Source of the DNA: a candidate division WWE3 bacterium GW2011_GWC2_41_23
GTDB taxonomy: Bacteria; Patescibacteriota; WWE3; UBA101185; UBA10185
DNA: 64,000 nucleotides
Assembly: GCA_000996895.1 (NCBI GenBank)
Contig: LCBB01000002.1
Coordinates: 27,596 to 91,595 of the forward strand
Direction: 5' to 3'
Part shown: one piece after another, positions 1,199 to 61,648 of the stretch
Layout of the letters: each line of letters starts with the position of its first letter
Position numbering within the stretch: the stretch's first letter is position 1
The notes under the pieces: generated by a model
The model's input: the letters and a program-made list of their open reading frames with translations, nothing else
Databases searched by the model: none
What the model was told of the DNA's origin: nothing
Position numbers and translations under genes: made by a program

Positions 1199-1870
1199 TT
1201 AGAGTTTTCTAAAGTTGAAAAACACCTCTGTTATGAATACCCTAGACTCGATGTTTAGCTTCAAGGGGAGGGCGCATCCAAACCGCCACAATACCGGAGT
1301 AAAAGACATGGTACAAACTCCATCTAATTTAAATCCGAGGCTGTTGAAAATATTCGTATAATAATGAGGCAATTGCATATTAGTGTGGAATCTATCGTAC
1401 AAATGCTTAGTAGAAGGGAAAGGCACGGAAAACAGAACCCTACCACCAGAATTTAATAATTCATAAATATTTACGGCTGCCTTACCCATGTTATCAATAT
1501 GTTCGAATACGTCAAATGCTATGACTACATCGAATTTTTCCTCTAGTGGCAAGGGTTTTAAAATATCTAGTTTGTAATATCTGTTTTGTAACCCACACCC
1601 ACGGTAAATACTTGAATTAATATCTGATGCAACCACATTATTAAATCCTTTGTCATTAAGTAATTTAATAAAACCTCCGTGCCCACTACCGATTTCTATT
1701 ATTGACCGAGTCTTATCTTTCTCAAAGTCCGAACAAACTCCCTTAACTGAGATGTAATAGTTAAGAAACCACTTAGAGCTGACTTTTAACGACACGTTTC
1801 TATTGTAAACTTCGTCATAATACTTGCCACTCGAATAACTACTTGAAACGGGTTGTGTCACTGCCCCCAC
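1199..1870 (-). CDS. class I SAM-dependent methyltransferase
   Basis: IIEIGSGHGGF motif I, then FDVVIAFDVFEHI. Confidence 0.8.
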   Translation of the reverse strand: MGAVTQPVSSSYSSGKYYDEVYNRNVSLKVSSKWFLNYYISVKGVCSDFEKDKTRSIIEIGSGHGGFIKLLNDKGFNNVVASDINSSIYRGCGLQNRYYKLDILKPLPLEEKFDVVIAFDVFEHIDNMGKAAVNIYELLNSGGRVLFSVPFPSTKHLYDRFHTNMQLPHYYTNIFNSLGFKLDGVCTMSFTPVLWRFGCALPLKLNIESRVFITEVFFNFRKL

Positions 1871-2919
1871 CCCTCCCTACTCAACTCCGCACTTTTAAAG
1901 TAGCGGCCCACACGCCCTGTCCCATAAACCCACAAAGTGATCCAACAAGCGGCGGGATGAAAAAACCAGGCAGTATCAAATTTTTTAAATAATCCTGCAA
2001 TCATTTGCACAAGTAAAGGTACCACCAATACGCAAGACAAAACAAACTTTACCATTCCCCACGGATTTTTCCCGCTCAAGTCCATATCTCCCCAACTAAA
2101 TTCGCGGTCTTTCTTCTCATTTAAATGAAAAAGGTAGTCTTTCACACGCCTCTTTTGTTTCCTTGCAAACTTTCCGATATCACTTCCGCAGAAATTATGA
2201 ATTATTCCGTTTTTTACTTTAATAAATTTAACCGAGCCCTTGTCCTTTATTTCCTTCGCCAAGATATCAATATCGAACAAATAGTCGCCTGTTACCCTGC
2301 TTTTTAAAAACTCAGTTCGGAAAACAGTTCCGTTTGCCCCAATTGTAGGTACTCCCCGTCGGTCCAAGCCCAAAAGCAAGTAGCCGCCCATGTCTTCTTC
2401 TTCGTGCTCCACTTCCGTCCACTTGCCGGTTAGTAAATTCACCCTATCGTAGTTGCCTAAAAACATTACAAACGGATCGTTCATACCGATTAACGCACAA
2501 TATCTGTCTATAAATCCGTTTTCTTTTCTCCAAATATATTTCCACGGCTCGCTTCCTACCGCTTCAACGTGTTTCAACAAAGGCTCAATCATCTGACCCA
2601 ACCATCCGCTGTCCGGCAAAATATTATCTGAGTCTATTAACACCGCGAAATCCCCCGTGCAGGCCTTCAATGCTGCCGCTTTACCTGCCTCTCCGGTCTT
2701 TAATTTGTTTTGTACAACAACCGCCCCATATTCCTTAGCTAATTCAACCGTTCCGTCAGCAGAACCGCCGTCAGCTACTACTATTTCGATTTTTTCTTTG
2801 GGGTAGTTCTGATTATTTATTGATTCCAAGCAATTCTTTAACACCGAAACGGCATTAAGTGTGGGTATCAGTATGGATATTGTAGGGGTTTCGGACAAAT
2901 CTTCTGGCTGATTTTCCAT
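1858..2919 (-). CDS. glycosyltransferase family 2
   Basis: N-terminal ISILIPTLNAVSVLKNCLESINNQNYPKEKIEIVVADGGSADGT (GT-A fold) and a DSDN DxD-type motif. Overlaps the upstream MTase by 13 nt, so they are co-transcribed. Confidence 0.8.
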   Translation of the reverse strand: MENQPEDLSETPTISILIPTLNAVSVLKNCLESINNQNYPKEKIEIVVADGGSADGTVELAKEYGAVVVQNKLKTGEAGKAAALKACTGDFAVLIDSDNILPDSGWLGQMIEPLLKHVEAVGSEPWKYIWRKENGFIDRYCALIGMNDPFVMFLGNYDRVNLLTGKWTEVEHEEEDMGGYLLLGLDRRGVPTIGANGTVFRTEFLKSRVTGDYLFDIDILAKEIKDKGSVKFIKVKNGIIHNFCGSDIGKFARKQKRRVKDYLFHLNEKKDREFSWGDMDLSGKNPWGMVKFVLSCVLVVPLLVQMIAGLFKKFDTAWFFHPAACWITLWVYGTGRVGRYFKSAELSREGWGQ

Positions 2920-2962: not shown

Positions 2963-3610
2963 CTAAGCGGATTTTTGGGCTTTGGCTACTACTGTCTGAC
3001 TTAAAAATGACAAAAATTTAGGCGGCCTAACAACCCTATACTTAACCGTAACCGGATGGTACAAACCCAGCCAGAAATTCTCTATATCAACCCTGCCAAA
3101 CTTAGATTTACTATATAAATTTTCTAAGGATCCCTTTGTATATTCTCTTAAGTGAACGCAATCTCCAAGCACATCGGTTGTACCCAAAAACATGGGAAAA
3201 ACCGGAAACTTACCGGTAGCAATTGTCCTGACCCAGCGTCCTACTCTGAACAAATTCGGTGTGAATACATAAGCAACTCCTCCGGGTTTTAACACTCTGT
3301 ACATCTCGTTAATAAAATTCAGGTCATTTTCTACGTGCTCTAAAACGTCAAAATTTGTAATTATATCGAAGGAATTATCAGTAAAACTTAATTTATCCTT
3401 TTCAATGATATTAAACGGAAATTTACTTTTGTTCTCAGGTTTTCTTGCATCTGCAATGTCGCAGCCTATTACGTCGGCTCCACGTTTGCAAAGTTCGTAA
3501 GTTGTGTCACCGCCTCCGCAGCCAATATCCAAAACTTTCTTGTCTTTGAAATCTATCTTGTCCAAAAATTTGAGGAAATCCAAGAAATAATAATCGGTCT
3601 TCATTTCCAT
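2963..3610 (-). CDS. class I SAM-dependent methyltransferase
   Basis: VLDIGCGGGDTT motif I and FDIITNFDVLEHV. Confidence 0.8.
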   Translation of the reverse strand: MEMKTDYYFLDFLKFLDKIDFKDKKVLDIGCGGGDTTYELCKRGADVIGCDIADARKPENKSKFPFNIIEKDKLSFTDNSFDIITNFDVLEHVENDLNFINEMYRVLKPGGVAYVFTPNLFRVGRWVRTIATGKFPVFPMFLGTTDVLGDCVHLREYTKGSLENLYSKSKFGRVDIENFWLGLYHPVTVKYRVVRPPKFLSFLSQTVVAKAQKSA

Positions 3611-3711: not shown

Positions 3712-3951
3712 ATGTACGATTTTTTCTTTTTCACGGTAGAGGGGTTTTCTACTGCACTGGAAAGGCTACGCAGGAGCGACAAAAGCTGGTACCACTGCTC
3801 CGAAAAGCTCCTCATCAGTTTTTATGAGGGATGCGACGCTGATTTCCTGGTGGGAGAACTTGCACTACTGGGAGTAGGCAGCGGAGCATACAAACTAGAA
3901 CGACCGGACAGGAAGAAGGGAGGAACCGAACAAAGCTCGCGCACGTGTTGA
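3712..3951 (+). CDS. hypothetical small protein (79 aa), islet orf1
   Basis: Near-consensus SD AGGGAGGG three nt before the ATG. Begins MYDFFFF. GC-richer than the flanks. No recognisable family. Confidence 0.5.
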   Translation: MYDFFFFTVEGFSTALERLRRSDKSWYHCSEKLLISFYEGCDADFLVGELALLGVGSGAYKLERPDRKKGGTEQSSRTC

Positions 3952-4004
3952 ACAACACATCTCTTTATCAGATAGCTAAACGGCACAGAAAGGCAAGGGA
4001 GGAT

Positions 4005-4226
4005 ATGTACATATTTTTTTGTTCGCCTGATGATTTGAGCAGAGCAATGCGGATTGGCGAAAAAATGCACGTGTTTGAAAGTCAGCATTATACTGTAGAC
4101 GCGGAAAAAAACCGGATAACCTTTGACAGCGCGTATCCGGAAAAAGTCCATATGTTTATAGCGGCTATCAAGCACGCTAATTCCTGCCCTGACAAACAAC
4201 CCATCTGCTTTAATATCGCACGCTAG
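4005..4226 (+). CDS. hypothetical small protein (73 aa), islet orf2
   Basis: Start moved to the internal ATG at 4005 because AGGGAGG lies 3-4 nt upstream. Begins MYIFFC, the same MY + Phe-rich start as orf1. Cys-containing C-terminus. The tool ORF 3945..4226 starts at a GTG with no SD. Confidence 0.5.
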   Translation: MYIFFCSPDDLSRAMRIGEKMHVFESQHYTVDAEKNRITFDSAYPEKVHMFIAAIKHANSCPDKQPICFNIAR

Positions 4227-4250
4227 GTTATTTTTAACCGACAGAACATA

Positions 4251-4289
4251 AGCCCGTTGTTTTTACCAAAACACAACGGGCTTTTTTTA
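4251..4289 (+). terminator. intrinsic terminator after orf2
   Basis: AGCCCGTTGT (4251-4260) pairs with ACAACGGGCT (4273-4282), followed by TTTTTTT. Confidence 0.75.
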
Positions 4290-4325
4290 TTAAACCGTGT
4301 CCTCTTTTTGGCATATACGGCTGAT

Positions 4326-4354
4326 TTGAAAACACAGCCTTATGCTGTTAGAAT
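4326..4354 (+). promoter_or_regulatory. sigma70-like promoter P2 (TTGAAA-N17-TAGAAT)
   Basis: -35 TTGAAA at 4326-4331, 17-nt spacer, -10 TAGAAT at 4349-4354. Predicted start near 4361, giving a leader of about 185 nt before orfA. Confidence 0.6.
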
Positions 4355-4545
4355 CCCATACACAAAGATAAATCCGTAAAAAAGGAGAGAAAATTATGGG
4401 CAGACACGTGAGGCGGGGTTGAGGTAAACCTGTCTTCATAAGTTGGAAAAAAGACGGTAATCAGACTGCATCTCAGAAACCAAATACAAAGGAATACTTT
4501 CCGGCGAATCCGAGGCGAGCTAACCAAACCTAAAAAGGGACTGAC

Positions 4546-4773
4546 GTGATAATTTTTATGTCTTACGATAACGCGTTGGCAGCAAGCAAACAAGTGGTCG
4601 GGCTACTCAGAACCGAGGGGTACAAAATTGAGTATCTTAAAGTTGAAATTGTCAAAAACAAAAACGGATTTTTCATTGAAGCTTCATCTGAGATGGATCC
4701 GTTGATGGCGGGCCGGTTCAGGCACCTTCTTAAGGAATACACGAAAACGTACCGAAAATACATCTCAATCTGA
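4546..4773 (+). CDS. hypothetical small protein (75 aa), islet orfA
   Basis: GTG start 6 nt after AAAAAGGGA. Alternative ATG at 4558. No family recognised. Confidence 0.5.
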   Translation: MIIFMSYDNALAASKQVVGLLRTEGYKIEYLKVEIVKNKNGFFIEASSEMDPLMAGRFRHLLKEYTKTYRKYISI

Positions 4774-4782
4774 GGAGGGGAA

Positions 4783-5076
4783 ATGTTATACAGGCTCGGT
4801 AACCTGGGAAAAGGTACGGTAGCATACGCTTCACCGAAGGCTCTTGTGTGCCATACAGGAAGGTTGTACATAAACTTTAACGTAAAGGTGACGCTGGGCT
4901 ACGACTCTGTGGGAGACAGAACTATGCGTGTTACTATGCTCGGAAAAGGAGTGCTCGTAACTCTGTGCACCATACCGAAAGGTTTCAACATACCTGTTTT
5001 GGACAGGTGGGTAATCTTGGGCACGAACTTTAGACCTGTCAAACTTGAGAAAATCGTGCGAACTAACTGCAACTAG
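4783..5076 (+). CDS. hypothetical small protein (97 aa), islet orfB; paralog of orfC
   Basis: SD GAGGAGGGG before the ATG. Shares RLYINFN / KLYINLN and GVLVTLCTIP / GVLVNMSTLP with orfC. Confidence 0.6.
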   Translation: MLYRLGNLGKGTVAYASPKALVCHTGRLYINFNVKVTLGYDSVGDRTMRVTMLGKGVLVTLCTIPKGFNIPVLDRWVILGTNFRPVKLEKIVRTNCN

Positions 5077-5088
5077 AAAGGAAGAGAA

Positions 5089-5388
5089 ATGATAAAGCTC
5101 AGGGAATTACCAGTTAACGCAAGGGTATTTGTTTCGCCGGGCGCGTTTATCAAATTTGAGGAGAAGTTGTACATAAATCTTAACTCTCAGATAAACGCGG
5201 TTTGTGATCCTTCGCGATACTTTACCGTAGAGGTCACAAGGCAGGAACAGGGGGTTTTGGTAAATATGAGCACCTTACCCGAACCACTCCTCGCACTGGA
5301 AATTGTCGACAAAATCTTTAAGAGAATAATCGACGACCATTTCCATCCAATTACCTTGGAAGGGTATAGGTTATTCGATACGTGCTAG
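5089..5388 (+). CDS. hypothetical small protein (99 aa), islet orfC; paralog of orfB
   Basis: SD AAGGAAGAG before the ATG. Tandem to orfB with a 12-nt spacer. Confidence 0.6.
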   Translation: MIKLRELPVNARVFVSPGAFIKFEEKLYINLNSQINAVCDPSRYFTVEVTRQEQGVLVNMSTLPEPLLALEIVDKIFKRIIDDHFHPITLEGYRLFDTC

Positions 5389-5403
5389 CGCTCAAAGCCA
5401 CGG

Positions 5404-5445
5404 TGTTTACTAAAATAAACTCGTGGCTTTTTTGTAATCAAATGC
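5404..5445 (+). terminator. intrinsic terminator after orfC
   Basis: AAAGCCACG (5404-5412) pairs with CGTGGCTTT (5432-5440), followed by TTTTG. Loop is 19 nt. Confidence 0.65.
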
Positions 5446-5466: not shown

Positions 5467-7077
5467 TTATTCTTTCTTAGCTGCTGCACCCGCAAACATA
5501 CTTTTTAATGCACTTCCCCAAAACTTAGGAGACAACCAATTTACCTTTGTCTGCTCCTTATCAAAGTCCAATAGATGGCCTAATAGTTTCCAGGCTGAGT
5601 AACCTAAAAATTTGACGTCACTCCAATTTCTTACCGAAAGTACTTTTCTTAAAATGTACTGAGGTGTGAAAAATGAAGAATAAAGTGATTGGGTTAATTC
5701 GTACAAACGTTCGTTTGAAAACGGTATTTTCATAACAGGCGCTCTCATATCAAACTTTTCATAGTCCTTTGCCCCGACCTGCAACCAATCTTTCTCCACA
5801 CACTCCTTATATAAAGGAGTCCCGGGATACGGTATTACGATTGTAGCCTGCATGGTGTCAACGTAGCCCCTTTTAAAGAGATCTTTGGCCAAGTCTATGG
5901 TCTTTTGAGCCATTTCCTCGGTTTCCCAGGGGTAGCCTAACATAACGGTTACGTGGGGCTCCAAACCTGCCTTTTTAGCTATTCTGGCGCCTTCTGCAAT
6001 CTCTTCTACCTGCAGTCCTTTATCCAACTTGTCCAAAGTAAACTGATTCGCCGATTCCATTCCATACAAAATAAATCTGAAATTGGCTTTGCCCATGAGT
6101 TCGTAATACTCGGAAGTTAAAGCGTTTAATCTCATGTTGCAGCCAAACACAACTTTCTTGCTGTAACCGGACTCTATCAGAAGTTCGCAGAACTTTTTCA
6201 ACGGCGGGCCGATAAATAAAGTTCCCGCATCATCAAAAATTTCTTTGACGCCGTAGTTGTCGACAACATGTTTAACTTCGGCAAAAAGCCTTTCGGGGGA
6301 AAATCTTCTATAGAAACCTTGTGGATTTAAAGTGTGATCCCAAACACAAAAAGTGCATCTATTCCACCAACAATCTCTTCCTGAATACATGTAAGTTGCA
6401 GGCGTATATTTATAATTTCCGTTCGCGTATGCGTAAAGTTTCCATTTTGTTAAGTCCCGGTCTACAAACGGAAGGTCATCTAAATTATGTTGCAGTTCTA
6501 AAGGTCCGCTCTGCCAGTATTCTTCTTCACCGGAAATTTCTGATTTATGCATTTTCAACCACTTGGGATCTACGGATACTTTTGTATCCCCTTTTCTACC
6601 GTAAACTCCCCCGGGTAAGTAGCTGTGGCTACTTATGGCTTCAACGGTATCGCTCAAAAGAAAATCGTAATCGCCTCCCGTTATTATGTAATCAACTTTG
6701 CAGGCGTCTAATGTTTCTACGGGGTTCCAGGTAACGTGGTCACCGACCAAAATAACTACCATATTGGGGAACTTCTCTTTGATATCATCTATTATTTTCC
6801 AGTGAAATTTCAAGACAGGAGCTTTGGTCTCCATCATAAGATAATCGGGCTGTTCTCTTTCAAGATCTGCAAGCCATTCCGTGTAGGTTTTCTTCTCCGC
6901 GATGCCGTCCATCCACACCACATCATATCCTCGTTCTTTAGCTAGTGACGCAGCATAAGCCGGAACCATGGGATAAATGTATGTGGGAGCATTAAAGTAC
7001 TGGAACTGTCTGTTCTGGGATAATAATGGCACTCCCTTGTACTGATCTATTGGAGGATACCCTATTGCAATTTTCAT
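5467..7077 (-). CDS. B12-binding-domain radical SAM protein (class B rSAM-like)
   Basis: N-terminal Rossmann-like region (IAIGYPP...VVWMDG) followed by a cysteine triad DCWWNRCTFC, which is Cx4Cx2C rather than the canonical Cx3Cx2C. TIM-barrel-length C-terminal part. Confidence 0.65.
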   Translation of the reverse strand: MKIAIGYPPIDQYKGVPLLSQNRQFQYFNAPTYIYPMVPAYAASLAKERGYDVVWMDGIAEKKTYTEWLADLEREQPDYLMMETKAPVLKFHWKIIDDIKEKFPNMVVILVGDHVTWNPVETLDACKVDYIITGGDYDFLLSDTVEAISSHSYLPGGVYGRKGDTKVSVDPKWLKMHKSEISGEEEYWQSGPLELQHNLDDLPFVDRDLTKWKLYAYANGNYKYTPATYMYSGRDCWWNRCTFCVWDHTLNPQGFYRRFSPERLFAEVKHVVDNYGVKEIFDDAGTLFIGPPLKKFCELLIESGYSKKVVFGCNMRLNALTSEYYELMGKANFRFILYGMESANQFTLDKLDKGLQVEEIAEGARIAKKAGLEPHVTVMLGYPWETEEMAQKTIDLAKDLFKRGYVDTMQATIVIPYPGTPLYKECVEKDWLQVGAKDYEKFDMRAPVMKIPFSNERLYELTQSLYSSFFTPQYILRKVLSVRNWSDVKFLGYSAWKLLGHLLDFDKEQTKVNWLSPKFWGSALKSMFAGAAAKKE

Positions 7078-7151
7078 CTTGAAAACCCTTTTTTCATTTG
7101 TTTAGTATATATAAAGCAATCGGGAAGTTCAACTAAGATATCGACAACTAT

Positions 7152-7409
7152 CTATTTGTTTTCCGGATATAAAACGTTACCTTCGAGGTCCTCAACAATA
7201 ATGGCTGTAGTGGGACATGACTTAGCACCCTTAATAATTTTTTCTGCCTCGTCCCAAGTTCCTTCTTTCGCGTACACAATACCGTTTGCATCCAAATCAA
7301 AAGTTTCCGGCGCGTGTATTATGCAAGTCGCCGCACTAATACATTTCTCGTTTATAACTTTAATTATTACTTTCGAATTCGGATTTTTATATGTAACAGT
7401 TTCTTCCAT
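7152..7409 (-). CDS. small ferredoxin (single Fe-S cluster type)
   Basis: 85 aa. KCISAATC ... AKSCPTTAI cysteine pattern, as in mono-cluster 3Fe/4Fe-4S ferredoxins. Directly upstream of the rSAM gene. Confidence 0.7.
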   Translation of the reverse strand: MEETVTYKNPNSKVIIKVINEKCISAATCIIHAPETFDLDANGIVYAKEGTWDEAEKIIKGAKSCPTTAIIVEDLEGNVLYPENK

Positions 7410-7411
7410 TT

Positions 7412-8425
7412 TTATCCTCCTAAATAATTTCCCGTTGTTTTATCGACGCCCCTCAATTTTAACGCAGGTTTTTTCAATATGCCAACTATAAAATTTATTC
7501 CGTACACTATATGAGTTAGAAAAATTCCTAAAGAAACATAAACCGCTCCTTTTAGATTTTTATCTTTGAAAAAAACGCGGGCACCTTCGCAAATCAACAT
7601 TGACAGGTATAGGACCAACCCGATTAGGTACAGCTCCCAAAGCCGGGGTAAGGCTAAAGATATGAAAGGACCCAGAACCAAGCCCGTTACAAACGCCGAA
7701 GGGGCAAAATAGGAGGGAAGCCTGGACGTTTCGGGAAAAATCCTGGCAAACTGGCCTCTGTGGCGTCCATACCTGGATATTTGCTTTAGGTGCGGGATAA
7801 AAAGGTTCCTTCTGTGATGATAAACCACCGGTGAGGGCTCATAGTTAAACTTTCTTCCCTGAGACTTTACCAGATCAAGACAAAGCTTGGTGTCCTCCCC
7901 AGGCCAAAATTCAACGGGAAAGCCCCCTACCCCATCGAATACTTTTTTCCGCACAAATAAGTTTACTGTGGGGTAGTCATCGATTTCCATACTTTTTCCG
8001 GGCGTATGCCTGTAAACCGTTCCGGCACTTGCCATCCAGGACTCCAGCACCCTCCCCGACATTTTTTCCAAAAACTCCGCATCTTTCGGTGTCATGGCGG
8101 GTCCCCCAAGAGCGTACGCTTCCTGATTTTCAAAAACTTCAACTGCCCTGTCTAACCAATCTTTTTCCGGATATGCGTCATCGTCCAAAAAAGCTAATAT
8201 GTCTCCGGAAGCTTTTGCCGCACCTATATTTCTTTTTTCACCGGGTCCTATAGGGCCGGAATTTATCAGGATAAATCTTGAGTCCTGAAAATCATAACTC
8301 TCTTCCTCGTCGGTAATGATTACTACTTCGAAATTTTGGTAAGTAAGTTCTTTCAGGTGAGAAATATTCTCTTTTAAAAACTCATTTATTTTTCTGACGG
8401 GAATAATAATGCTGAACTTATTCAC
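7412..8425 (-). CDS. glycosyltransferase family 2 with C-terminal TM segments
   Basis: FSIIIPVRKINEFLKEN...FEVVIITDEE, DDDAYP DxD motif, hydrophobic C-terminus. Confidence 0.8.
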   Translation of the reverse strand: MNKFSIIIPVRKINEFLKENISHLKELTYQNFEVVIITDEEESYDFQDSRFILINSGPIGPGEKRNIGAAKASGDILAFLDDDAYPEKDWLDRAVEVFENQEAYALGGPAMTPKDAEFLEKMSGRVLESWMASAGTVYRHTPGKSMEIDDYPTVNLFVRKKVFDGVGGFPVEFWPGEDTKLCLDLVKSQGRKFNYEPSPVVYHHRRNLFIPHLKQISRYGRHRGQFARIFPETSRLPSYFAPSAFVTGLVLGPFISLALPRLWELYLIGLVLYLSMLICEGARVFFKDKNLKGAVYVSLGIFLTHIVYGINFIVGILKKPALKLRGVDKTTGNYLGG

Positions 8426-9251
8426 CTCTCAACTCTCCTGTATTGACGCGCATATCCAACTCTTTGTCATAGACCCACTTTCTGTCACTTTTGTCATCGT
8501 AATATTTTAAAAAGTTCAATCTGTAGAAAACGGCGGCGGTGTCTAATAACATGTTTCGGATGTGCCGGTCGAGAAAGAAAAACGCCGAAAATGAGGATTC
8601 AGAAAAATCTATATTTACATATACCGGAGCTTCGTAAATATTATGAAAGCCCAAATGGCTTGCTACGGCCAATAGCTCGATGTCGAAAGCAAATTCTTTT
8701 ATTACAAGCCTGGGTAATACTTTGACCAGAACTTCCCGTTTAAATACCTTCAGCCCCGTCTGAGTATCCTTCACGTGTAAACCGAAAAGTAACCACACCA
8801 AAGTGTGATAGCCCCAGCTATAAACTCTTCTCACAATAGGATATTTAACCTTAGATGCCGGATGTTTTTTGCTCCCCACAATAATATCCGCTCCGTACCA
8901 TTCCATGTGTTCGAGAAGCATTGAAATTCCGTTGGGGTTAATGTCCATCCCTGCGTCTATGAACGAAACGTAATCGCCCGACGCCCTTGCCATACCGTAT
9001 CTGATTGCGTAACCTTTTCCTCTATTTCTCTCATAACAAAATGCTTTTAATTTTTTATTTTCCAAAGATTTTGCAATATCGTATGTTTTATCAAGCACGC
9101 CGTCGACAACTACTATAATTTCAAAATCCCACCTGGTTTGAAGCATAGTGTTCAGTATATTTTCAAGATCTTGTTTGATGGTTTTTTCTTGTTTATAGGC
9201 AGGGACAATTATCGAAACAAGTTTTTCAGATTTCTGTTGCTCTTTTTCCAT
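8418..9251 (-). CDS. glycosyltransferase family 2
   Basis: VSIIVPAYKQEKTI...FEIIVVVDGVLDKT and the IDAGMD motif. Confidence 0.8.
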   Translation of the reverse strand: MEKEQQKSEKLVSIIVPAYKQEKTIKQDLENILNTMLQTRWDFEIIVVVDGVLDKTYDIAKSLENKKLKAFCYERNRGKGYAIRYGMARASGDYVSFIDAGMDINPNGISMLLEHMEWYGADIIVGSKKHPASKVKYPIVRRVYSWGYHTLVWLLFGLHVKDTQTGLKVFKREVLVKVLPRLVIKEFAFDIELLAVASHLGFHNIYEAPVYVNIDFSESSFSAFFFLDRHIRNMLLDTAAVFYRLNFLKYYDDKSDRKWVYDKELDMRVNTGELRGE

Positions 9252-10503
9252 TGTTACCTACTATAAAAAATACGGAAAGAAGTACTAAGCTGATTATACC
9301 AGCATATATGTCGGCACTGATTACATTGTACAAAGTCGCGTGATTTGAGTTTATTAGTACATACTGGACGATTAAACCAGGCAGCAACAGTAGGAACACG
9401 GAGGTTCTATTGACGGCCAAAAAGAACAGTACCAGAAAGTTAATCACTATATATAAACCGATGAATAGCGAGAAAACCGGCAAGTACTCCACCGAGTTCA
9501 TAAATCTTTCTCCGAAAAATAGTCTGGTCAGAAAAGAAGGAAATAATGAGAAGGCTACCAATCCTCCGGCGACCAATACTAACTGAAGTGATAAAAATTT
9601 AAAAAACGCCCGGCCGTAATTTAACCCCCGCGCAGCCAGCGAAGAAATTGTAGGGAACATTACCGTAGAAACTGCACCGGCACCGAATAGAAAAATTTTA
9701 CCTAAAGTAACAGTACCCGCATAATATCCGGCCATTTCCGGATCAAAATATTTTTTAACTAGAATTATGTCTATATTATTTAGAAACATTAATCCGAAAC
9801 TTACAAACATTACCGGAAGGCTGAACGCGAGTAATCTTTTGTAGTCCTCCATTAAGCTGATGTTTTCAAAAACCGTTAAGTTCTTGCGTAAAATAAAAAA
9901 TGCGGTGAGTAGCGCTAACACACCGGCAACAAACATTCCTCCGAACGCTCCCGCTAATTTAAACCCTAATAAAACGGCAAGAACAGAAAAACCAAAACGG
10001 TAAAAGCTCGACAACACATTGAAAAAGGCGTAAGCACGGTATCTTAGCAAACCCTGAAAGTACGAGGCCGGTATTGCCCCTGCGAAAGCCAATCCCATCG
10101 AAATACCGTAAACGGTAATAAGAACGGTGTCATTGATTTTTAGTTGTTCCGAAATACTAAATCTAAGTAAAAAAATCGCTAGTGATATTCCAACCCCCAG
10201 CACCAGTGAAATTACAAGAAGTTTCCAGTACATTGCCGTAAGTTTTTTTGAATCCTGCCTCGAAGAAAGTTCCGAAACATATTTTATAAGTGAGACGCTG
10301 AAAACTCCCGCAGGAACACCCACCAAATATGAGAGAGAAATCAAAGCATTAAAAGTTCCGAAATCGGCAACTGAAAGTATTCTACCGAAAACAAATTGCA
10401 GTAAATACGAAAAAATAGAAGCCAAAACACTACCGACTCCTATATATACCGTACCCATCAGATACTTATTCGTTTTAACTTTTTGTATGAATGCCCCAAT
10501 CAT
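9226..10503 (-). CDS. polysaccharide/oligosaccharide flippase (Wzx-like, MOP superfamily)
   Basis: 425 aa with about 12 predicted TM helices and the length and pattern typical of Wzx. Confidence 0.65.
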   Translation of the reverse strand: MIGAFIQKVKTNKYLMGTVYIGVGSVLASIFSYLLQFVFGRILSVADFGTFNALISLSYLVGVPAGVFSVSLIKYVSELSSRQDSKKLTAMYWKLLVISLVLGVGISLAIFLLRFSISEQLKINDTVLITVYGISMGLAFAGAIPASYFQGLLRYRAYAFFNVLSSFYRFGFSVLAVLLGFKLAGAFGGMFVAGVLALLTAFFILRKNLTVFENISLMEDYKRLLAFSLPVMFVSFGLMFLNNIDIILVKKYFDPEMAGYYAGTVTLGKIFLFGAGAVSTVMFPTISSLAARGLNYGRAFFKFLSLQLVLVAGGLVAFSLFPSFLTRLFFGERFMNSVEYLPVFSLFIGLYIVINFLVLFFLAVNRTSVFLLLLPGLIVQYVLINSNHATLYNVISADIYAGIISLVLLSVFFIVGNNGKRATEI

Positions 10504-12092
10504 AATGAAGTTCTCTCGTACACTTTATATACTTCAACACCACGGAGATAGATGCTATCTACATACTTTAAACCGAACCTTTTCTCTTCCCCGGAAATGT
10601 CGCCCCATACAGGATAGACAAAGTACTTCGTTTTTACCGCGAAAGGCGTTAAGTCCTCGATGACCGCGTATCCCCCTATTACACGGAAAAACGGGTGAAT
10701 CTGGGTATAATATTTTTCCTGGAAAGCTACGGTTAAAGCATTTCCTGCCTCCGATCCGCTCAGAACTTTTTCTAAAGAAGTGTTGCCGTAAACAGGGTTC
10801 AATCCGTCTTCGGTCATTTTCTTTTCAAAAAAGTTTATAACTTGTCTTTCCCCGATTAGCCACTTAGGCTCCAAGACGTTTATTCCTGTTTTAAGGCCGC
10901 CGAACATCGGGTTGTAATACGACATGTAGTCAGGATGGAGGTAGAATGCAGGTATTGCCGTGGCAATTACCAAAGGAATAAATTTCAAGAAACTTCTTCC
11001 TTTTATTTTTTCCAGTAGCCAAATCCAGAACAAAGACGTGATTAAAGACAACATCATAATATTCGGTAAAATGTAACGGTCCAGTTTCTTTGACGGAATT
11101 ATTAACTGCGCGAAATAAAATCCTACAAACAACAAAACGTAGAGTAAAAACTTGCGTTGTCCTTCAACAAATATTTTTTTCCAAAATATTGCGGTTCCGA
11201 TTAAACCTAAAATTAAAAGATAAGAAGAGCGTAAACCCAAAACTACGAAATAGTAGAAAAAGCCCGGGTCTTCTACAAGCTTTCCGAAATAGAATTGTAC
11301 GTGCTCCCTTTCAATTCCGATTTCCGACACCCCGCGGTAGAGCGCTGCCAGAGCCTGCCCGGGAAATGCCCACATAGCGGGCCAAAATGCCGTGAACGTG
11401 GCTAAAAATATAAGAAGCCACAATCCGATTTTCGGTAAAGCGGTGACAATATTTTTCCTTCCTTCTATCAGCAATATAAGCCCCGCGTAAGGAAACATAA
11501 ATAATGCTGAGGTCTTGGTTAAAAAAGCCAGTCCCGCGAATACAGCCGAAACTACCAATCTTTTTTTCTTGCCCATATCCAGTGTGTAATAGTAAAGCCA
11601 CAAAAAAGACGCCAGCATAAACGTCGACATCAATCCTTCCAAATGGAACTCGCGGGTTAAAGCAAGGTAGAACGGTTCAAGAGAAAGTAAGGTAACTAAC
11701 AATAAAGCTTTTCTCGCCCCGAACAATTTTTTGAGTACGAAAAGTGAGAGACCCAGTGTTACCGCTATTGCAGTCACCACGAAGAGTTTTTGCACAAAGT
11801 GAAGCTGAAAAATCATCGCGACGCTATTTTCGGCAGGATTACTCTCGGAATAAAAATTGTAAACTTTTATTGCAGCCGTCCCGAGCCACATTAAAGTAAC
11901 CCCGGGATGATATTTCTGAATTGTCTTTTCTAAATCCCAAGTAAAGACACCGGTGCCGAAATCGTAGCTACGCGCCTTCCATTTCCATACATCGGTATTA
12001 AACGTATCGTTCCCAAGATCAGGAAGCCTGGAGGCTATAAAAAGAAGGGCAAAAAGTATTTCAAGTAAGTGGTTTTTAATAAATTTAATCAT
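10500..12092 (-). CDS. GT-C fold membrane glycosyltransferase (PMT/ArnT-like)
   Basis: Polytopic N-terminal part plus a soluble C-terminal domain. Shares the YHPGVTLMW motif with the 13575..15149 gene. Confidence 0.55.
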   Translation of the reverse strand: MIKFIKNHLLEILFALLFIASRLPDLGNDTFNTDVWKWKARSYDFGTGVFTWDLEKTIQKYHPGVTLMWLGTAAIKVYNFYSESNPAENSVAMIFQLHFVQKLFVVTAIAVTLGLSLFVLKKLFGARKALLLVTLLSLEPFYLALTREFHLEGLMSTFMLASFLWLYYYTLDMGKKKRLVVSAVFAGLAFLTKTSALFMFPYAGLILLIEGRKNIVTALPKIGLWLLIFLATFTAFWPAMWAFPGQALAALYRGVSEIGIEREHVQFYFGKLVEDPGFFYYFVVLGLRSSYLLILGLIGTAIFWKKIFVEGQRKFLLYVLLFVGFYFAQLIIPSKKLDRYILPNIMMLSLITSLFWIWLLEKIKGRSFLKFIPLVIATAIPAFYLHPDYMSYYNPMFGGLKTGINVLEPKWLIGERQVINFFEKKMTEDGLNPVYGNTSLEKVLSGSEAGNALTVAFQEKYYTQIHPFFRVIGGYAVIEDLTPFAVKTKYFVYPVWGDISGEEKRFGLKYVDSIYLRGVEVYKVYERTSL

Positions 12093-13594
12093 TAGCGGAT
12101 CATCTCCTCGACCGTGATATACGGGCCAATTCTACCTTTGTTAGACACCTCAAAAAGGGCTTTGCCCGAAGAAACTCCTTTGTCCGTTTCGATGTAATAA
12201 TAACGCGTTCCTTTAGGTAGTTTTGTTGCATCTTTCACCGCATTATTAAATACATACTTCGCTACGGGCTCTACATCCGAGCTTCCGTAAACTACCCGCG
12301 TACCCAGCGGAACTTCTGTCTCCAGAAATTTTTGCAACTCCAGCCGTGTGTCGTTTCTTAAAAATCTTACTGAATTATAAACGGACAAATAGAACGGAGG
12401 TAAAAATAAAATGAGAATTATCGGAAAATATAATGACTTCATTCCCAGACTCGCCTTATTCATAGCCCACACACAGAAATAACCGAATATGACCGAAAAG
12501 AACGGGTATGTAATGAAGTAATACTGCGAACGGCTTTTTTCGAAACCCGAAATGTAATAAATTAGGGCAAACACCGTAATTATTAAAAACATCAAAGACA
12601 CGTCAAACCTGGAAAATTTTCCTCTTAAAAATCTAATAAGAACAAGGCCGGAAGTTAGAAACAGCCCGATCAAAATTGTGTAACCTAGGTCATCCGATAT
12701 TTTAAAACTTATGTCCGTGAAAAATTTTACCAGATGCTCGGAAAAACTTACCGAACCCACGTTGGTGAACTGCCAAAAAGCTCCCACTGCCGAGTCGGTC
12801 CTGCTAAAGGTCTTATAGTCCAGGATGGCATACGGTGTACCGAGGACAAACCCCAAAAAGGCAAAAATGCCGGCTAAAAAGAGGTTCAAAATCGTCTTAA
12901 AATAGGGAAAATCGCCCCTTGTATCGGAAAGGCGTATTTTGACCAAAACCCAGCGTAAAAACGCCGCCAAAGGTACTGTAACGGCTCCCAGACCCCCGTT
13001 ATACTTGTTCGAGGCGGCGATCCCTATAAAAAACCCCGACATTATATAGTCTATAGGATATCCGTGGACAAGAATACGCGCGGCAAAGTAAACCCCCCAC
13101 GACATAAAAAACAACATGGGCGCGTCAGGGAGCGAATAGTGGGAATGCCACACGTGAAAAGGGATTAAGGTAAAAGCCAGGGCTGAGAGGAGACCGACTT
13201 TATCGCCGAACAGAACTTTTCCGGTTTTATATATTGGAATCACCGTTAACGCCCCAAGCACTGCCGCAAAAACGCGCGTTATAAAATAGAAAACGACGGT
13301 GTCGTCCCACATGAGCGGAAATATTTTAATCATAAAGTTTTGAAAGTTATAATCGATTGCGAGATCCCGGATCTTAGCAAAAACCAGATAAACAAAATAG
13401 TTAGCATATATAAAAAAGTGAGGCCAGTCGAAGTGACCGGGATTCGGATCAAACCTCACATCAAGAGCAGACCGGACTATTGTAGGTTCGTCGGGGTGGA
13501 AAATAAAAGGGAATCCGTGACTTATTCCCGCTAGTCTTAATGCAAGGGCAAGAAATATTATCAGGTATAAAAGACTACTTGTCTTCCTTGACAT
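12092..13594 (-). CDS. GT-C glycosyltransferase, family 39/83-like (ArnT/PMT_2)
   Basis: First-loop DE motif (FHPDEPTIVRSALD), about 11 TM helices, then a soluble C-terminal domain. Confidence 0.65.
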   Translation of the reverse strand: MSRKTSSLLYLIIFLALALRLAGISHGFPFIFHPDEPTIVRSALDVRFDPNPGHFDWPHFFIYANYFVYLVFAKIRDLAIDYNFQNFMIKIFPLMWDDTVVFYFITRVFAAVLGALTVIPIYKTGKVLFGDKVGLLSALAFTLIPFHVWHSHYSLPDAPMLFFMSWGVYFAARILVHGYPIDYIMSGFFIGIAASNKYNGGLGAVTVPLAAFLRWVLVKIRLSDTRGDFPYFKTILNLFLAGIFAFLGFVLGTPYAILDYKTFSRTDSAVGAFWQFTNVGSVSFSEHLVKFFTDISFKISDDLGYTILIGLFLTSGLVLIRFLRGKFSRFDVSLMFLIITVFALIYYISGFEKSRSQYYFITYPFFSVIFGYFCVWAMNKASLGMKSLYFPIILILFLPPFYLSVYNSVRFLRNDTRLELQKFLETEVPLGTRVVYGSSDVEPVAKYVFNNAVKDATKLPKGTRYYYIETDKGVSSGKALFEVSNKGRIGPYITVEEMIR

Positions 13595-15149
13595 ATATTC
13601 TCCAGTACTCCAATCCGTTAACGTAAAGCGATGAATCTTTCCTGAACCTGGTTCCGCTTTTTAAAACTTTTTCGGGCATTTCTTCGTTTATTCCTAAGAC
13701 TAATAGTTCGTAATCGCTTACCCCGTTAATCCTTATATCCGCTACTTTTGAGTTCGAGTAAATTGCTTTCATAGGCTTTGTGTCTATAAAACCCAGCTCC
13801 GGTTCACCGCCGTACTTCTCTATTATGTAGTCCTTAAGTGCCGGAACCGCGATGCCGAATGGTTTTTGGGCAATAATCCTGTTTGCCGATTCAGCAGTAC
13901 CGAACAACGGGCTGGTATATGTAAAGTAGTAAGGAAAATCCACGACCGCGGGTAGGATGTAAAAAAGAGTAAATGAGAATATTGCCAGGCTCATGAATAT
14001 TTTCTTTAACCTGGTCGTTTTTATTAATAAGTAAAATCTTAAAATTCCATGAGCAGCTAAAAGCGCTAAAAACGGATAAAGCGGAAGCATGTATCTATCA
14101 AGTTTTTTGGACGGGTAAATCATGACGAAAAAATATCCGAGATAGAACATGGCAAGATAAAGGTAAGGGTTGGAATATTTAGAGGCAAAAATTTTCATAA
14201 CCGCAGTAGCGGACTTTGCGCATTTTATTAAACAAAGCGCGAGTCCGGTTATTAAAAACGGCGTAACTTTAATTAGAAGCACCAGCGGATAAAATAAAAT
14301 CCCCGCGTCCTGTGTTGTTTCCCCGAATACTATCTGTTCGTGACCTTTTCTTATTCCTACTCTTTCAGACTCGGCAAATATCTCCGTCATGTAGTAAACC
14401 GGCCTTACCCACAAAGCGGGAAATAATAAAAAGGTTGTTACGATAAACGCACCCAATATTGTACAAAAGTATTTCAAAAGTCCTCTGAGATCTTTTTTAT
14501 TCGCAAAGTAAGCTGTTGAAAAAATCAATACAAAAAAGAGAGCGCCTATACCGATGCTTTTGGTAAGAAATGAAAGTGACAAGAACACCCCCGTCAGAAT
14601 TGTCCCCTTATAGCTAAAATTCCTGAGATTTAACCAGCTTATAAGCAAACCTATAAGCACAAACAGCGCCAGCAGTATATCCATGTGGTACAACCTGGAA
14701 TTGCCCATAAAAAAGGGTTCCAGGGAGAAAAGAAACACCGAAAAATAGGCTATTTTGAACCCAACCACCCGCGTTAAATAATATAAAAGAATAAAGGTCA
14801 GAATTAACTGGGCAGCCACCACCGAAACTTTAGCCACGGTATTAAAGGCCAGGAAGTTGAATTGATCGTAAGTGGTTATCCCCGTGATTTGTTTATAGAT
14901 CTCAATCGGCACTCCTGTAATCCACATTAAAGTGACGCCCGGATGATAATGCTGGTAAGTTCGCTCAAAATCCCCCGATTTTAAACCGACAATAAATTGC
15001 TGCGACCTATAATGCCAGTTAACTCCGTCGGGGTTTATTTCGTCGGGGCCAAGAAAAAGAAAACGCGTTAAACCAAAGACCAGTATAAAAAAAATGATAG
15101 CCACGTGCTTATTGGTAATAAGACCGGTTAAACGTTCCCGTATTTTCAT
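13575..15149 (-). CDS. GT-C fold membrane glycosyltransferase (PMT/ArnT-like); paralog of 10500..12092
   Basis: LGPDEINPDG first-loop DE motif and YHPGVTLMW. Polytopic. Confidence 0.6.
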   Translation of the reverse strand: MKIRERLTGLITNKHVAIIFFILVFGLTRFLFLGPDEINPDGVNWHYRSQQFIVGLKSGDFERTYQHYHPGVTLMWITGVPIEIYKQITGITTYDQFNFLAFNTVAKVSVVAAQLILTFILLYYLTRVVGFKIAYFSVFLFSLEPFFMGNSRLYHMDILLALFVLIGLLISWLNLRNFSYKGTILTGVFLSLSFLTKSIGIGALFFVLIFSTAYFANKKDLRGLLKYFCTILGAFIVTTFLLFPALWVRPVYYMTEIFAESERVGIRKGHEQIVFGETTQDAGILFYPLVLLIKVTPFLITGLALCLIKCAKSATAVMKIFASKYSNPYLYLAMFYLGYFFVMIYPSKKLDRYMLPLYPFLALLAAHGILRFYLLIKTTRLKKIFMSLAIFSFTLFYILPAVVDFPYYFTYTSPLFGTAESANRIIAQKPFGIAVPALKDYIIEKYGGEPELGFIDTKPMKAIYSNSKVADIRINGVSDYELLVLGINEEMPEKVLKSGTRFRKDSSLYVNGLEYWRIYVKEDK

Positions 15150-26694: not shown

Positions 26695-27819
26695 TTACCT
26701 TTTATTAACCTTCCAAATTATTTTACTATAAACTGTGAAATTCCATATCAACCCGAAAATTATACCAATTAAAAAGGCTGTGTTTGAAACGAGAGCTGTA
26801 TCTCCGAACGTGCTAACGGAAAATCCTACAAGTCTTGAACGGACCGCTATAGGTATAAAGGAAGATACGATGTACAAAATAAATCCCAGCACTTTCTTTT
26901 GTACCCCGTCGATTTTTCTTTCCCCGAACGACCAATAGTTATTCAATAAAAAGGTCACTATCATGGCTACAAAACCCGAAGCCACGGCAGAATCACGTGA
27001 GCTCAATACACTAATTCTGAAAATATTGAACAGCCCGGCGTCAACTATAAATCCTATTCCGCCGACTACGAGAAATCTTACAAAGTTTTTATTCTCGTTG
27101 TACCTAAGGGTAACGACAACTCTCAAAGAATCCCGCAAATTATTTTTTTCCATTTTTGAATCACCGCGGTCACGTAATCCGAATTTTATCGGAACTTCTT
27201 TTATTTTTGCGCCCAATCTGTGCATTTTGAACAGAAGGTCAATTTTGTATGCAAACCCCTGCGACAATATTGCTTCCAGAGGCAACTTATCTACAAATCC
27301 TTTTACGCGCGACGCTTTAAAACCTGAAGTGAAATCATTAACATCAAAGATTCCCAGAACAATTTTTGAAAAAATGTTTCCGCCTACACTGAAAAATTTA
27401 CGCTTAAACGCCCATTCATCCGGAATGCTCCCGCCCTTTGTAAACCTCGAACCAATAACATAGTCGTAACCGTTATCTATCTCATCGACAATTCTGACTA
27501 CGTCTTTCGGGTCGTGCTGAAAATCCGCATCCATTTCAACAATAACATCCGCTTTTAGTTCATTCATGGCTTCTTTGAACCCATAAACATACGCGGCTCC
27601 CAGGCCCGCTTTGACTTTTTCCATCAGCAAATGAATATTCGGATTGTTTTTCATTTTTTCACGTACTACTTCCGCGGTGCCATCGGGTGAATTTCCCTCG
27701 ACCACAAGAATATGGAAATCGTGTTGAGATCTTTTTAAAAATTCCTGCTGAAGAACATCTGCAAGCCTTCCGATATTATCTGCTTCGTTATAAGTAGGTA
27801 TTACAATAACTATTTTCAT
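26695..27819 (-). CDS. GT2 (DPM-synthase-like) fused to a C-terminal GtrA-like membrane domain
   Basis: Start moved to the internal MKIVIVIPTYNEADNI. The 27936 start would overlap the upstream gene. EMDADFQHDP motif. C-terminal FLVVGGIGFIVDAGLFN matches the GtrA family. Confidence 0.8.
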   Translation of the reverse strand: MKIVIVIPTYNEADNIGRLADVLQQEFLKRSQHDFHILVVEGNSPDGTAEVVREKMKNNPNIHLLMEKVKAGLGAAYVYGFKEAMNELKADVIVEMDADFQHDPKDVVRIVDEIDNGYDYVIGSRFTKGGSIPDEWAFKRKFFSVGGNIFSKIVLGIFDVNDFTSGFKASRVKGFVDKLPLEAILSQGFAYKIDLLFKMHRLGAKIKEVPIKFGLRDRGDSKMEKNNLRDSLRVVVTLRYNENKNFVRFLVVGGIGFIVDAGLFNIFRISVLSSRDSAVASGFVAMIVTFLLNNYWSFGERKIDGVQKKVLGFILYIVSSFIPIAVRSRLVGFSVSTFGDTALVSNTAFLIGIIFGLIWNFTVYSKIIWKVNKR

Positions 27820-27821
27820 AT

Positions 27822-28082
27822 TTAGAAACTCAGGACAGTATACAGCAGGAAAAAAATGAGTACGCCAAACACCGCGTACTCGGCTGCGATAAATTTGGTC
27901 AGCCTTCCTTCCACAGCATGATGAATAATCCCCCAAAGAACATAACCGAAGGAAGCAACCCCGGATAAGAATATCAGTACCCTGTGGTCATACCTGAAGT
28001 AGTAAAACAACAAACTTATTATGGCAGCGAGGGACAACAAGACTGCATATTCAACTAAGTGTGTGTCAGTCTTTTCTTTCAT
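27822..28082 (-). CDS. small two-helix membrane protein (86 aa)
   Basis: ATGA start/stop overlap with the CAP-domain gene at 28079-28082. Two hydrophobic helices. No family. Confidence 0.5.
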   Translation of the reverse strand: MKEKTDTHLVEYAVLLSLAAIISLLFYYFRYDHRVLIFLSGVASFGYVLWGIIHHAVEGRLTKFIAAEYAVFGVLIFFLLYTVLSF

Positions 28083-61254: not shown

Positions 61255-61644
61255 ATGGCTCAAACAACAAAGAAAACAAAAAAGAAAGAAAAAATAATAA
61301 CTCCGAGCGGGAGAGTCTATATCACCGCGGGTATGAATAACACCATTATTACGGTAACCGATTCTGAAGGTAACACACTATTTACAGCCAGCTCAGGAAG
61401 CGCGGGGTTTAAAGGATCAAGAAAATCAACTCCTTACGCTTCAACAAAAGCAGCTGAAATTGCAGGTTCCGCAGCTTCAAAAGCAGGCGTCAGAGACGTC
61501 TCAGTCTATTTAAAAGGAGCAGGACTGGGCAGAATTTCTTCCATCAAGGCTCTGAAAACAGCAGGTCTTAATGTCGTGTCAATTTCCGATCTTACCCCCA
61601 TCCCTCATAACGGATGCAGACCGGAGAAAAAGAGAAGGGTCTAA
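61255..61644 (+). CDS. rpsK: 30S ribosomal protein S11
   Basis: Sequence and operon position. Confidence 0.95.
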   Translation: MAQTTKKTKKKEKIITPSGRVYITAGMNNTIITVTDSEGNTLFTASSGSAGFKGSRKSTPYASTKAAEIAGSAASKAGVRDVSVYLKGAGLGRISSIKALKTAGLNVVSISDLTPIPHNGCRPEKKRRV

Positions 61645-61648
61645 TAAT

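Follow-up and report, generated by a model that had tools for sequence, protein, structure and literature searches.

The question raised by this locus is what a cobalamin-type radical S-adenosylmethionine (SAM) enzyme does among the glycosyltransferase genes of a bacterium of the candidate phyla radiation (CPR), and on what it acts. The window, meaning the whole stretch of DNA that was analysed, comprises 64,000 nucleotides of the candidate division WWE3 bacterium GW2011_GWC2_41_23 (GenBank assembly GCA_000996895.1, contig LCBB01000002.1, positions 27,596 to 91,595), and the gene in question encodes a radical SAM (rSAM) protein of 536 amino acids (aa) with a cluster motif spaced Cx4Cx2C. By architecture it is a cobalamin-type (class B) radical SAM enzyme, belonging to an uncharacterised subfamily of WWE3, Roizmanbacteria and Microgenomates-type CPR bacteria. 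A sugar or a lipid-linked glycan is its most reasonable substrate, because the glycan context of the gene is conserved far beyond the source genome, and we hold with moderate confidence that the enzyme tailors a membrane-anchored glycan intermediate. That its specific chemistry is C-methylation is a more tentative proposal, to which we give rather less than even weight.

The gene is intact and a real open reading frame (ORF), with a translation beginning MKIAIGYPP. The protein and its parts are encoded as follows.

5467-7077, minus strand: B12-type radical SAM protein (536 aa), encoded by the gene with the highest conservation in the locus
6628-7077, minus strand: N-terminal Rossmann-like domain of the cobalamin-binding type, approximately aa 1-150 (from Pfam, AlphaFold2 secondary structure and the family alignment)
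5887-6378, minus strand: radical SAM core, aa 234-397 (PF04055, 63.8 bits, E 2.8e-17; gathering threshold 29.5)
6340-6372, minus strand: cluster loop CWWNRCTFCVW (from the translation), C236-x4-C241-x2-C244 and then x-W246

There are seven cysteines (126, 236, 241, 244, 297, 313 and 426), of which C236, C241 and C244 form the only triad, and no Cx3Cx2C was found anywhere in the 536 residues. The first-pass annotation of this locus, which had described a single Cx4Cx2C triad with no canonical alternative elsewhere, is thus confirmed on both points by the translation and the full list of cysteine positions. An auxiliary iron-sulfur cluster built from the extra cysteines was considered and rejected, as C297 and C313 are kept widely and not universally, C426 is kept only in close relatives, and no motif was found.

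Is the additional residue in the loop real? A search of 5.8 billion proteins returned more than 6,600 relatives of the rSAM protein. The best 120 share 71-91% identity with it over 98-100% of the query, and their named sources are WWE3, Patescibacteria or Saccharimonadales metagenome-assembled genomes (MAGs). The pattern CW[WY]x[RK]C[TV]FC is kept in all 120, with exactly the query motif in 109; with the spacing present in every one and all of them collinear with the query, the x4 loop cannot stem from a frameshift or an assembly error. Pairwise alignment with a genuine HpnJ (CR-SKCTFCLW against CWWNRCTFCVW) gives a one-residue gap, with the insertion on the query side. Loop length was surveyed in the 150 best cluster representatives (clusters at 50% identity), in which the first two cysteines are separated by x3 in 51 (for example CPYRCTFC), x4 in 37 (mostly of the CW[WY] type), x7 in seven (for example CWWRKDGGCTFC) and x9 to x18 in several others, while a few full-length members have no triad at all. 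The Cx4Cx2C spacing is also already known in OxsB (PMC9204698) and in GenD1, which C-methylates gentamicin A (PMC4340712), and the RadicalSAM.org catalogue holds many spacing variants of the cluster motif (PMC9477430). From the conservation in 120 of 120 homologues and from these precedents, Cx4Cx2C is a family signature and no novelty of kind. The spacing singled out in the first-pass annotation as non-canonical is therefore genuine and conserved, but as a novelty it was overstated, since OxsB and GenD1 share it and the loop is plastic within the clade. What the clade does offer is a large natural series of loop lengths (x3, x4, x7 and x9-x18) in which the role of the loop beside cobalamin can be asked.

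Two further observations concern remote members of the family. Five full-length proteins (P0142, P0145, P0149, P0150 and P0153; 31-38% identity) retain none of the three cluster cysteines and, judging by their sequences, are likely to be catalytically dead paralogues. In others (P0122-P0126 and P0266), inteins of the Hint plus LAGLIDADG type interrupt the protein exactly at cluster-ligand cysteines. The pattern in P0122, P0124, P0125 and P0126 is CW[WY]...CTF / C-intein...N / C-SWTT, the +1 extein nucleophile being the third cysteine of the motif, while in P0123 the intein precedes the first cysteine, so that the family has two independent insertion sites.

Whether the enzyme binds cobalamin was approached through its predicted fold. 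From 41 sequences of the family, AlphaFold2 gave a model with a pLDDT of 79 and a pTM of 0.79, in which low confidence is confined to the beta1-alpha1 loop (aa 16-36) and the surroundings of the cluster loop (aa 218-254), as is expected because the cofactors are absent from the model. Foldseek against the Protein Data Bank (PDB) ranked MgmA, AprD4, TsrM, OxsB, TokK and CysS in that order (E 2e-16 to 5e-10, TM-score 0.5-0.6, identity 11-17%), with MiaB placed between OxsB and TokK and generic radical SAM barrels far lower. The earlier assignment of the protein to the B12 type, with a cobalamin-binding-like Rossmann region at its N-terminus, is upheld by these matches to cobalamin-type radical SAM structures. 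A phmmer sequence search of the PDB detected only AprD4 (the best match, E 3e-9) and MgmA, and a PDB profile search with the family alignment found nothing beyond these two.

The positions that contact cobalamin in class B enzymes, as defined from the OxsB, TsrM and TokK structures, are [GA]-x-[ST] on the beta3 loop, a Gly on beta4 and Gly-Glu at alpha5 (PMC9204698); they were compared through an alignment with canonical relatives. The beta3 loop carries an invariant E83-T84-K85, where relatives have TSTP and the [GA] position is here a Met. On beta4, G112-D113-H114 is invariant in the family (GxH in relatives), and alpha5 starts with an invariant G134-G135-D136, so that GD stands in place of the GE of relatives. 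The long beta1-alpha1 "His loop" contains an invariant LLSQNRQFQYF. Following the triad, C244-V-W246 is invariant, and a Trp at this place is present in 62 of 106 motif-bearing family representatives; W246 occupies the position of TokK Trp215, the Cys-x-Trp residue that stacks between cluster and cobalamin (PMC9204698). These contact positions, kept in large part, support cobalamin binding by the enzyme short of proving it.

It must be asked here whether the protein might instead be a cobalamin-independent enzyme with a leftover B12-like Rossmann domain, for example a sugar diol-dehydratase in the manner of AprD4. CPR bacteria are not known to synthesise cobamides, and the B12-binding domain of the rSAM protein itself (PF02310, aa 34-134) scores 24.6 bits, under the gathering threshold of 32.1; a Pfam check of the two domains named in the first-pass annotation is thus clear for the radical SAM core and falls short for the B12-binding domain. 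AprD4, moreover, ranks first by sequence and second by fold among solved structures, and it has been reported to lack cobalamin binding (PMC12931638); because it has the same architecture without cobalamin, architecture alone cannot prove the cofactor. Set against this, the NCBIfam model for AprD4-family diol-dehydratases (NF033070), tried as a candidate and rejected, gives 41.4 bits where the cutoff is 500. Both the Cys-x-Trp and the residues at the cobalamin-motif positions are invariant, and many homologues exceed the B12-binding threshold; the domain is recorded for most of them, and reaches 34-40 bits in P0122-P0124. We regard a cobalamin-independent enzyme as improbable.

The substrate is best considered through the neighbouring genes. 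All genes from 5467 to at least 26688 lie on the minus strand, those from 5467 to 15149 are tightly packed and overlapping, and from the ferredoxin upstream most overlap or abut. Nearest to the rSAM gene are the following, where GT2 denotes a family 2 glycosyltransferase and TM a transmembrane segment.

1858-2919, minus strand: GT2 with at least one C-terminal TM segment, the usual gene downstream of the rSAM gene in other genomes
2963-3610, minus strand: class I SAM methyltransferase, a variable accessory gene
3712-5388, plus strand: five small ORFs of 75-99 aa forming an islet, at a variable hotspot that separates the rSAM gene from the next glycan genes
7152-7409, minus strand: mono-cluster ferredoxin, 85 aa, C23/C29/C65 (Fer4_13, Fer4_19 and Fer4_15 above cutoffs)
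7412-8425, minus strand: GT2 with C-terminal TM helices (2-3, approximately aa 240-320), the most constant partner of the rSAM gene
8418-9251, minus strand: soluble GT2, weakly like the polyprenyl-phosphate sugar synthases PgfS, ArnC, PpgS and AglJ
9226-10503, minus strand: Polysacc_synt (Wzx-type) flippase
10500-15149, minus strand: three tandem PMT_2 (GT-C, ArnT/PMT-like) membrane glycosyltransferases

When GTDB was scanned with one genome for each species, at least 420 loci with a relative of the rSAM gene were found, and the best 80 (61-92% identity) were analysed; upstream neighbours on the same strand were counted in the 61 loci with at least 4 kb on that side, and downstream neighbours in 60 loci. 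The 80 loci come from WWE3, Roizmanbacteria, Microgenomates and Patescibacteria, and also from MAGs labelled as Saccharibacteria or Gammaproteobacteria that show the same synteny; the highest identity, 92%, is to WWE3 bacterium RAAC2_WWE3_1, whose genome is complete. Across them the gene order flippase-GT2-GT2-ferredoxin-rSAM-GT2 is conserved. Upstream, the GT2 of the 7412 type was present in 58 of 61 loci (median identity 40%), the GT2 of the 8418 type in 49 (58%), the flippase in 47 (37%), the ferredoxin in 43 (54%) and PMT_2 genes in 25-28; downstream, the GT2 of the 1858 type was present in 28 of 60 loci and the methyltransferase in 16. The rSAM protein itself has a median identity of 66%, the highest in the module. 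Further recurrent neighbours are nucleoside diphosphate (NDP)-sugar epimerases and dehydratases, DegT aminotransferases, family 4 glycosyltransferases (GT4), a TylC3-like methyltransferase and acetyltransferases; on inspection of representative sequences these are glycan genes throughout.

The association extends to distant relatives. In a metagenomic locus (L086), a 39%-identical rSAM protein with a canonical CPMKCSFC is followed by a GT2 of the 7412 type (32% identity, E 5e-47). A relative with x7 spacing adjoins a GT2, one with x4 spacing adjoins a Bac_transf phosphoglycosyltransferase, and a Lawsonia plasmid enzyme, 29% identical, lies in a cluster of GT2, GalE, heptose-pathway and methyltransferase genes. 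The setting among glycosyltransferases and SAM methyltransferases that had been described for the window is accordingly found in full (GT2, GT4, GT-C, flippases and methyltransferases), and the context of homologues, when glycan is weighed against peptide biosynthesis, is that of glycans.

These partners also bear on the idea that the enzyme modifies something other than a glycan, either the carrier itself, whether polyprenyl or lipid, or a surface protein destined for later glycosylation by the GT-C enzymes. Class B enzymes such as HpnP, HpnR and the archaeal tetraether methylase Gmm do act on lipids, the C-terminal helices of the rSAM protein are amphipathic, and PMT_2 enzymes can target proteins. 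The constant partners, however, are glycosyltransferases and not lipid-synthesis or target-protein genes, and no conserved candidate protein substrate was found in the loci; a non-glycan substrate has, in our judgement, a low probability.

Lower still is the probability that the enzyme is a maturase of ribosomally synthesised and post-translationally modified peptides (RiPPs) acting on peptides from the adjoining islet, a substrate that the first-pass annotation had thought conceivable. Five small ORFs do adjoin the rSAM gene, and the protein gives weak matches to the models ApyD (63 bits) and rSAM_ocin_1 (45 bits), but these scores are far under the cutoffs (TIGR03975, 45 against 282; NF050148, 63 against 750). 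The islet ORFs lie on the opposite strand, are 75-99 aa long and globular-looking, and gave no match in Pfam and PHROG searches. Their homologues are limited to five of the 80 loci, the five closest, all WWE3 (L003-L007), whereas all 80 carry the rSAM gene, with GT2 genes as its constant partners. The islet ORFs are far less conserved than the rSAM protein, and other genomes carry different insertions at the same spot. We judge the islet to be a lineage-specific insertion outside the system; the phyletic pattern effectively refutes a peptide substrate, which was rejected on that pattern and on the absent family matches and is to us extremely improbable. Within the islet, the ORFs at 4783-5076 and 5089-5388 look paralogous (LYINFNVKV compared with LYINLNSQI). 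Hairpin-plus-T-run sequences flanking it at approximately 4240-4275 and 5395-5440 were spotted by eye; a simple terminator scan did not detect these long-loop hairpins.

Several observations made in the other loci stand apart from the argument. The metagenomic glycan cluster of L086 (653-12556) contains four different B12-type rSAM genes interleaved with GT2, PMT, YfhO-like and epimerase/NDP-sugar genes. A polytopic membrane protein of about 166 aa, with the motifs DVDHLFDY and HGWEW (for example L040 11594-12091), follows directly on the rSAM gene in 18 of 80 loci (19 ORFs) with a median gap of 26 bp, and is absent from the window. In 20 CPR loci, a membrane protein resembling LPG_synthase_TM (for example L031 92-1003) is encoded on the upstream side at a distance of about 8 kb; Paraburkholderia has, after hpnJ-hpnI, a protein with that domain annotation (L090 7482-8534), and its similarity to the CPR protein is marginal (E 2e-4). 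About 20 MAGs labelled 'uncultured Gammaproteobacteria' or 'Pseudomonadales' (L037, L042, L046-L048, L053 and others) carry the module with Roizmanbacteria-like identity and synteny, and these labels are probably wrong.

The ferredoxin is the next component to be considered. Its gene begins 2 bp past the stop codon of the GT2 at 7412-8425 and lies 74 bp upstream of the rSAM gene on the same strand, and the protein passes a mono-cluster ferredoxin profile test (37.2 bits against 24.5). The motif CxxAxxC...CP is kept in 52 of 53 homologues from related loci. Its closest solved relatives are the small mono-cluster ferredoxins 4id8 and 8amp, the latter from Mycobacterium and seen fused to CYP143 in 8amq; we take these to be [3Fe-4S] proteins, and the three-cysteine pattern presumably marks the ferredoxin of the locus as one of the same [3Fe-4S]-type mono-cluster group. 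A dedicated single-cluster ferredoxin immediately upstream, as first described, is therefore present and is a conserved neighbour, with the correction that it has only three cysteines. It accompanies the module in 43 of 61 and in 48 of 66 loci (two counts), and in 37 of 53 copies it is within 250 bp upstream of the rSAM gene, the others having 1-6 variable genes between. That the ferredoxin is a dedicated redox partner of the rSAM enzyme is well supported; electrons may flow from the former to the latter.

From these elements a working mechanism can be outlined, in which we infer cobalamin binding, a lipid-linked glycan substrate, methylation and the direction of electron flow. A [4Fe-4S] cluster would be held by C236, C241 and C244 in a loop one residue longer than the canonical one, and in its reduced state would split SAM to give a 5'-deoxyadenosyl radical. 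The radical would take a hydrogen from a sugar within a membrane-anchored glycan intermediate (linked to polyprenyl phosphate or a lipid), made at the cytoplasmic face by the co-transcribed GT2s, chiefly the TM-anchored GT2 at 7412-8425. In the favoured version, methylcobalamin would give its methyl group to the sugar radical (C-methylation) at a cost of two electrons per turnover, and the three-cysteine ferredoxin would supply the electrons for turnover. After further extension, the tailored intermediate might be moved across the membrane by the Wzx-type flippase and transferred on the outer side by the GT-C (PMT_2) enzymes.

C-methylation is favoured because it is the dominant activity of class B, because GenD1 is a precedent with identical loop spacing, because the TokK-type Trp is present and because a demand for two electrons suits a dedicated ferredoxin. 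Indeed, every class B group that has a characterised member includes C-methyltransferases (PMC12931638). The earlier suggestion of radical C-methylation or another radical modification of a sugar or polyprenol-linked intermediate thus stands as to its glycan context, which is conserved, while its chemistry would still be a deduction.

The main rival concerns that chemistry, and supposes that the same class of lipid-linked sugar undergoes something other than methylation, namely rearrangement or ring contraction (proposed for HpnJ and Cds, and carried out by OxsB), epimerisation, dehydration or oxidation; the ferredoxin would then only prime the cluster or accept electrons. Scores against curated families point this way, with HpnJ (152.4 bits) and BchE (95.5 bits) well above the methylase models PhpK (56), MgmA (47) and HpnR (40). 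OxsB has the same Cx4Cx2C, HpnJ is also encoded beside a membrane GT2 (HpnI), and a [3Fe-4S]-type ferredoxin fits electron acceptance as well as donation; HpnJ and Cds have been proposed to contract a lipid-linked hexose (PMC13459092). Yet genuine HpnJ is only 29% identical to the rSAM protein, which equals the identity of the unrelated Lawsonia glycan-cluster enzyme, HpnI is unrelated to the GT2 of the 7412 type (E 0.57), and reviews hold that sequence cannot separate non-methylases from methylases. A redox-neutral rearrangement would also be less in need of a dedicated ferredoxin. On balance, we consider non-methylation chemistry unlikely, though more probable than any of the other alternatives discussed.

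A number of findings count against tailoring by a cobalamin-dependent, ferredoxin-fed enzyme and should be set beside it. [3Fe-4S] ferredoxins are often insufficiently reducing for a radical SAM cluster. The ferredoxin is missing from about 30% of loci, and where genes intervene it remains with the GT2 rather than with the rSAM gene. The nearest curated families, HpnJ and BchE, are non-methylases; the B12-binding match falls under its threshold, and AprD4, one of the two solved structures nearest to the rSAM protein, has been reported, as stated above, not to bind the cofactor. A search for cobalamin riboswitches in the window and in six related loci gave none. In the literature, no paper on this CPR rSAM family or on the biochemistry of any member was found, and searches on WWE3 with radical SAM or cobalamin, and on glycan C-methylation by B12 radical SAM enzymes, returned nothing relevant.

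The interest of a cobalamin-type enzyme tailoring membrane-anchored glycans lies in the organisms that carry it. CPR/Patescibacteria cell envelopes are biochemically almost unstudied, and within a glycan module common to hundreds of species-level genomes (at least 420 GTDB-representative matches) the rSAM gene has the highest conservation. The module is a tractable entry point, as four or five co-expressed genes could reveal both the glycan and its radical modification. The likely cobalamin dependence is itself a point of interest in such minimal genomes, and if real would tie envelope synthesis in ultra-small episymbionts to cofactor scavenging. A bolder reading, and one we think distinctly unlikely, is that this is a near-universal envelope enzyme of Microgenomatia/WWE3, which would install an undescribed radical modification on a lipid-linked surface-glycan precursor, for example a C-branched sugar or a carbocyclic, ring-contracted one; the cells, presumably cobamide auxotrophs, would then depend on scavenged B12 and a dedicated ferredoxin. 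If this were true, the housekeeping-level conservation of the gene and the repeated invasion of its cluster cysteines by inteins would reflect its importance.

The remainder of the glycan locus is consistent in content with the part already described. Reading upstream from the ferredoxin, the genes are GT2, GT2, flippase, three PMT_2, a second flippase, DUF2079, GT2, PMT_2, three GT4, UDP-glucose dehydrogenase and GT2; downstream of the rSAM gene are a methyltransferase, a GT2 and another methyltransferase. The neighbours comprise two Polysacc_synt flippases, four PMT_2 GT-C enzymes, one DUF2079, three GT4 and one UDP-glucose dehydrogenase, with GT2 genes starting at 1858, 7412, 8418, 18742, 25930 and 26695. 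Other features are listed here.

329-982, 1199-1870 and 2963-3610: the three class I SAM methyltransferases
26695-27936, minus strand: GT2 fused to a GtrA/DPMS TM domain, of the polyprenyl-phosphate sugar synthase type
28079-29068, minus strand: CAP (cysteine-rich secretory protein) domain protein, 329 aa, at the edge of the glycan locus
57427-58251: BacA/UppP, indicating that recycling of the undecaprenyl-phosphate carrier is encoded

Far from the locus, at 61571-63160 on the plus strand, a single 529-aa ORF combines the domains of ribosomal protein S4 (aa 29-171) with a full set of RpoA domains (aa 248-524), joined at ...VDVQAIIEL-MIVTKENL... without a stop; rpsD and rpoA appear to be fused here, or to have lost the stop codon between them.

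How, finally, does the system compare with those already known? The best curated match to the rSAM protein is HpnJ, the radical SAM enzyme of the hopanoid cyclitol ether. The two share the architecture of a B12 domain and a radical SAM core, a Cys-x-Trp after the triad and a membrane GT2 encoded alongside, and HpnJ acts on a lipid-linked sugar. In contrast to the protein described here, HpnJ has the canonical CRSKCTFC, and its loci contain no ferredoxin. Membership of the HpnJ family (TIGR03471) was rejected, as the score is far below the cutoff of 577.6, identity to Paraburkholderia HpnJ is 29% and the partner GT2 and context differ; no hopanoid families were found among the neighbours in the window. 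BchE (TIGR02026), the label given to homologues by JGI, was likewise rejected, its score comparing with a cutoff of 481.35.

In the Haloferax Agl pathway (AglJ, AglG, AglM, AglP, AglR and AglS) the likeness is one of gene content. The locus has weak AglJ- and AglG-like GT2s, a UDP-glucose dehydrogenase, SAM methyltransferases, a Polysacc_synt flippase and GT-C enzymes of the PMT_2 type, with all matches to Agl families far under the family cutoffs. The described Agl pathway is not known to include a radical SAM enzyme or a ferredoxin.

Among solved structures, AprD4 (PDB 6FD2) and MgmA (PDB 9CCB) are the closest by sequence and by fold, at 16-17% identity; AprD4 is sugar-acting, whereas MgmA methylates a protein glutamine. 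OxsB (PDB 5UL2-4), which contracts a deoxyribose ring (PMC9204698), resembles the rSAM protein in its Cx4Cx2C, its base-off cobalamin domain joined to a radical SAM barrel and its sugar-ring substrate, with a fold match at E 1.6e-14, TM-score 0.58 (0.44 when normalised to the target) and 14% identity. It differs in its length of about 730 aa, its extra domains and its role in nucleoside antibiotic synthesis, and phmmer gave no match to it at E<=1. An OxsB-type ring contractase was therefore rejected as an assignment, as the loop is shared and neither sequence homology nor the domain organisation of about 730 aa is found. Compared by description, a functional parallel to the proposed C-methylation is with the aminoglycoside C-methyltransferases GenD1 and GenK, also of class B; GenD1 shares the Cx4Cx2C and methylates a sugar carbon with cobalamin (PMC4340712), although the substrate of these actinomycete enzymes is a soluble pseudotrisaccharide of secondary metabolism. 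Placed beside these systems, the rSAM protein of the WWE3 locus belongs to a known enzyme class, as one of its uncharacterised members, and is not a new kind of system.

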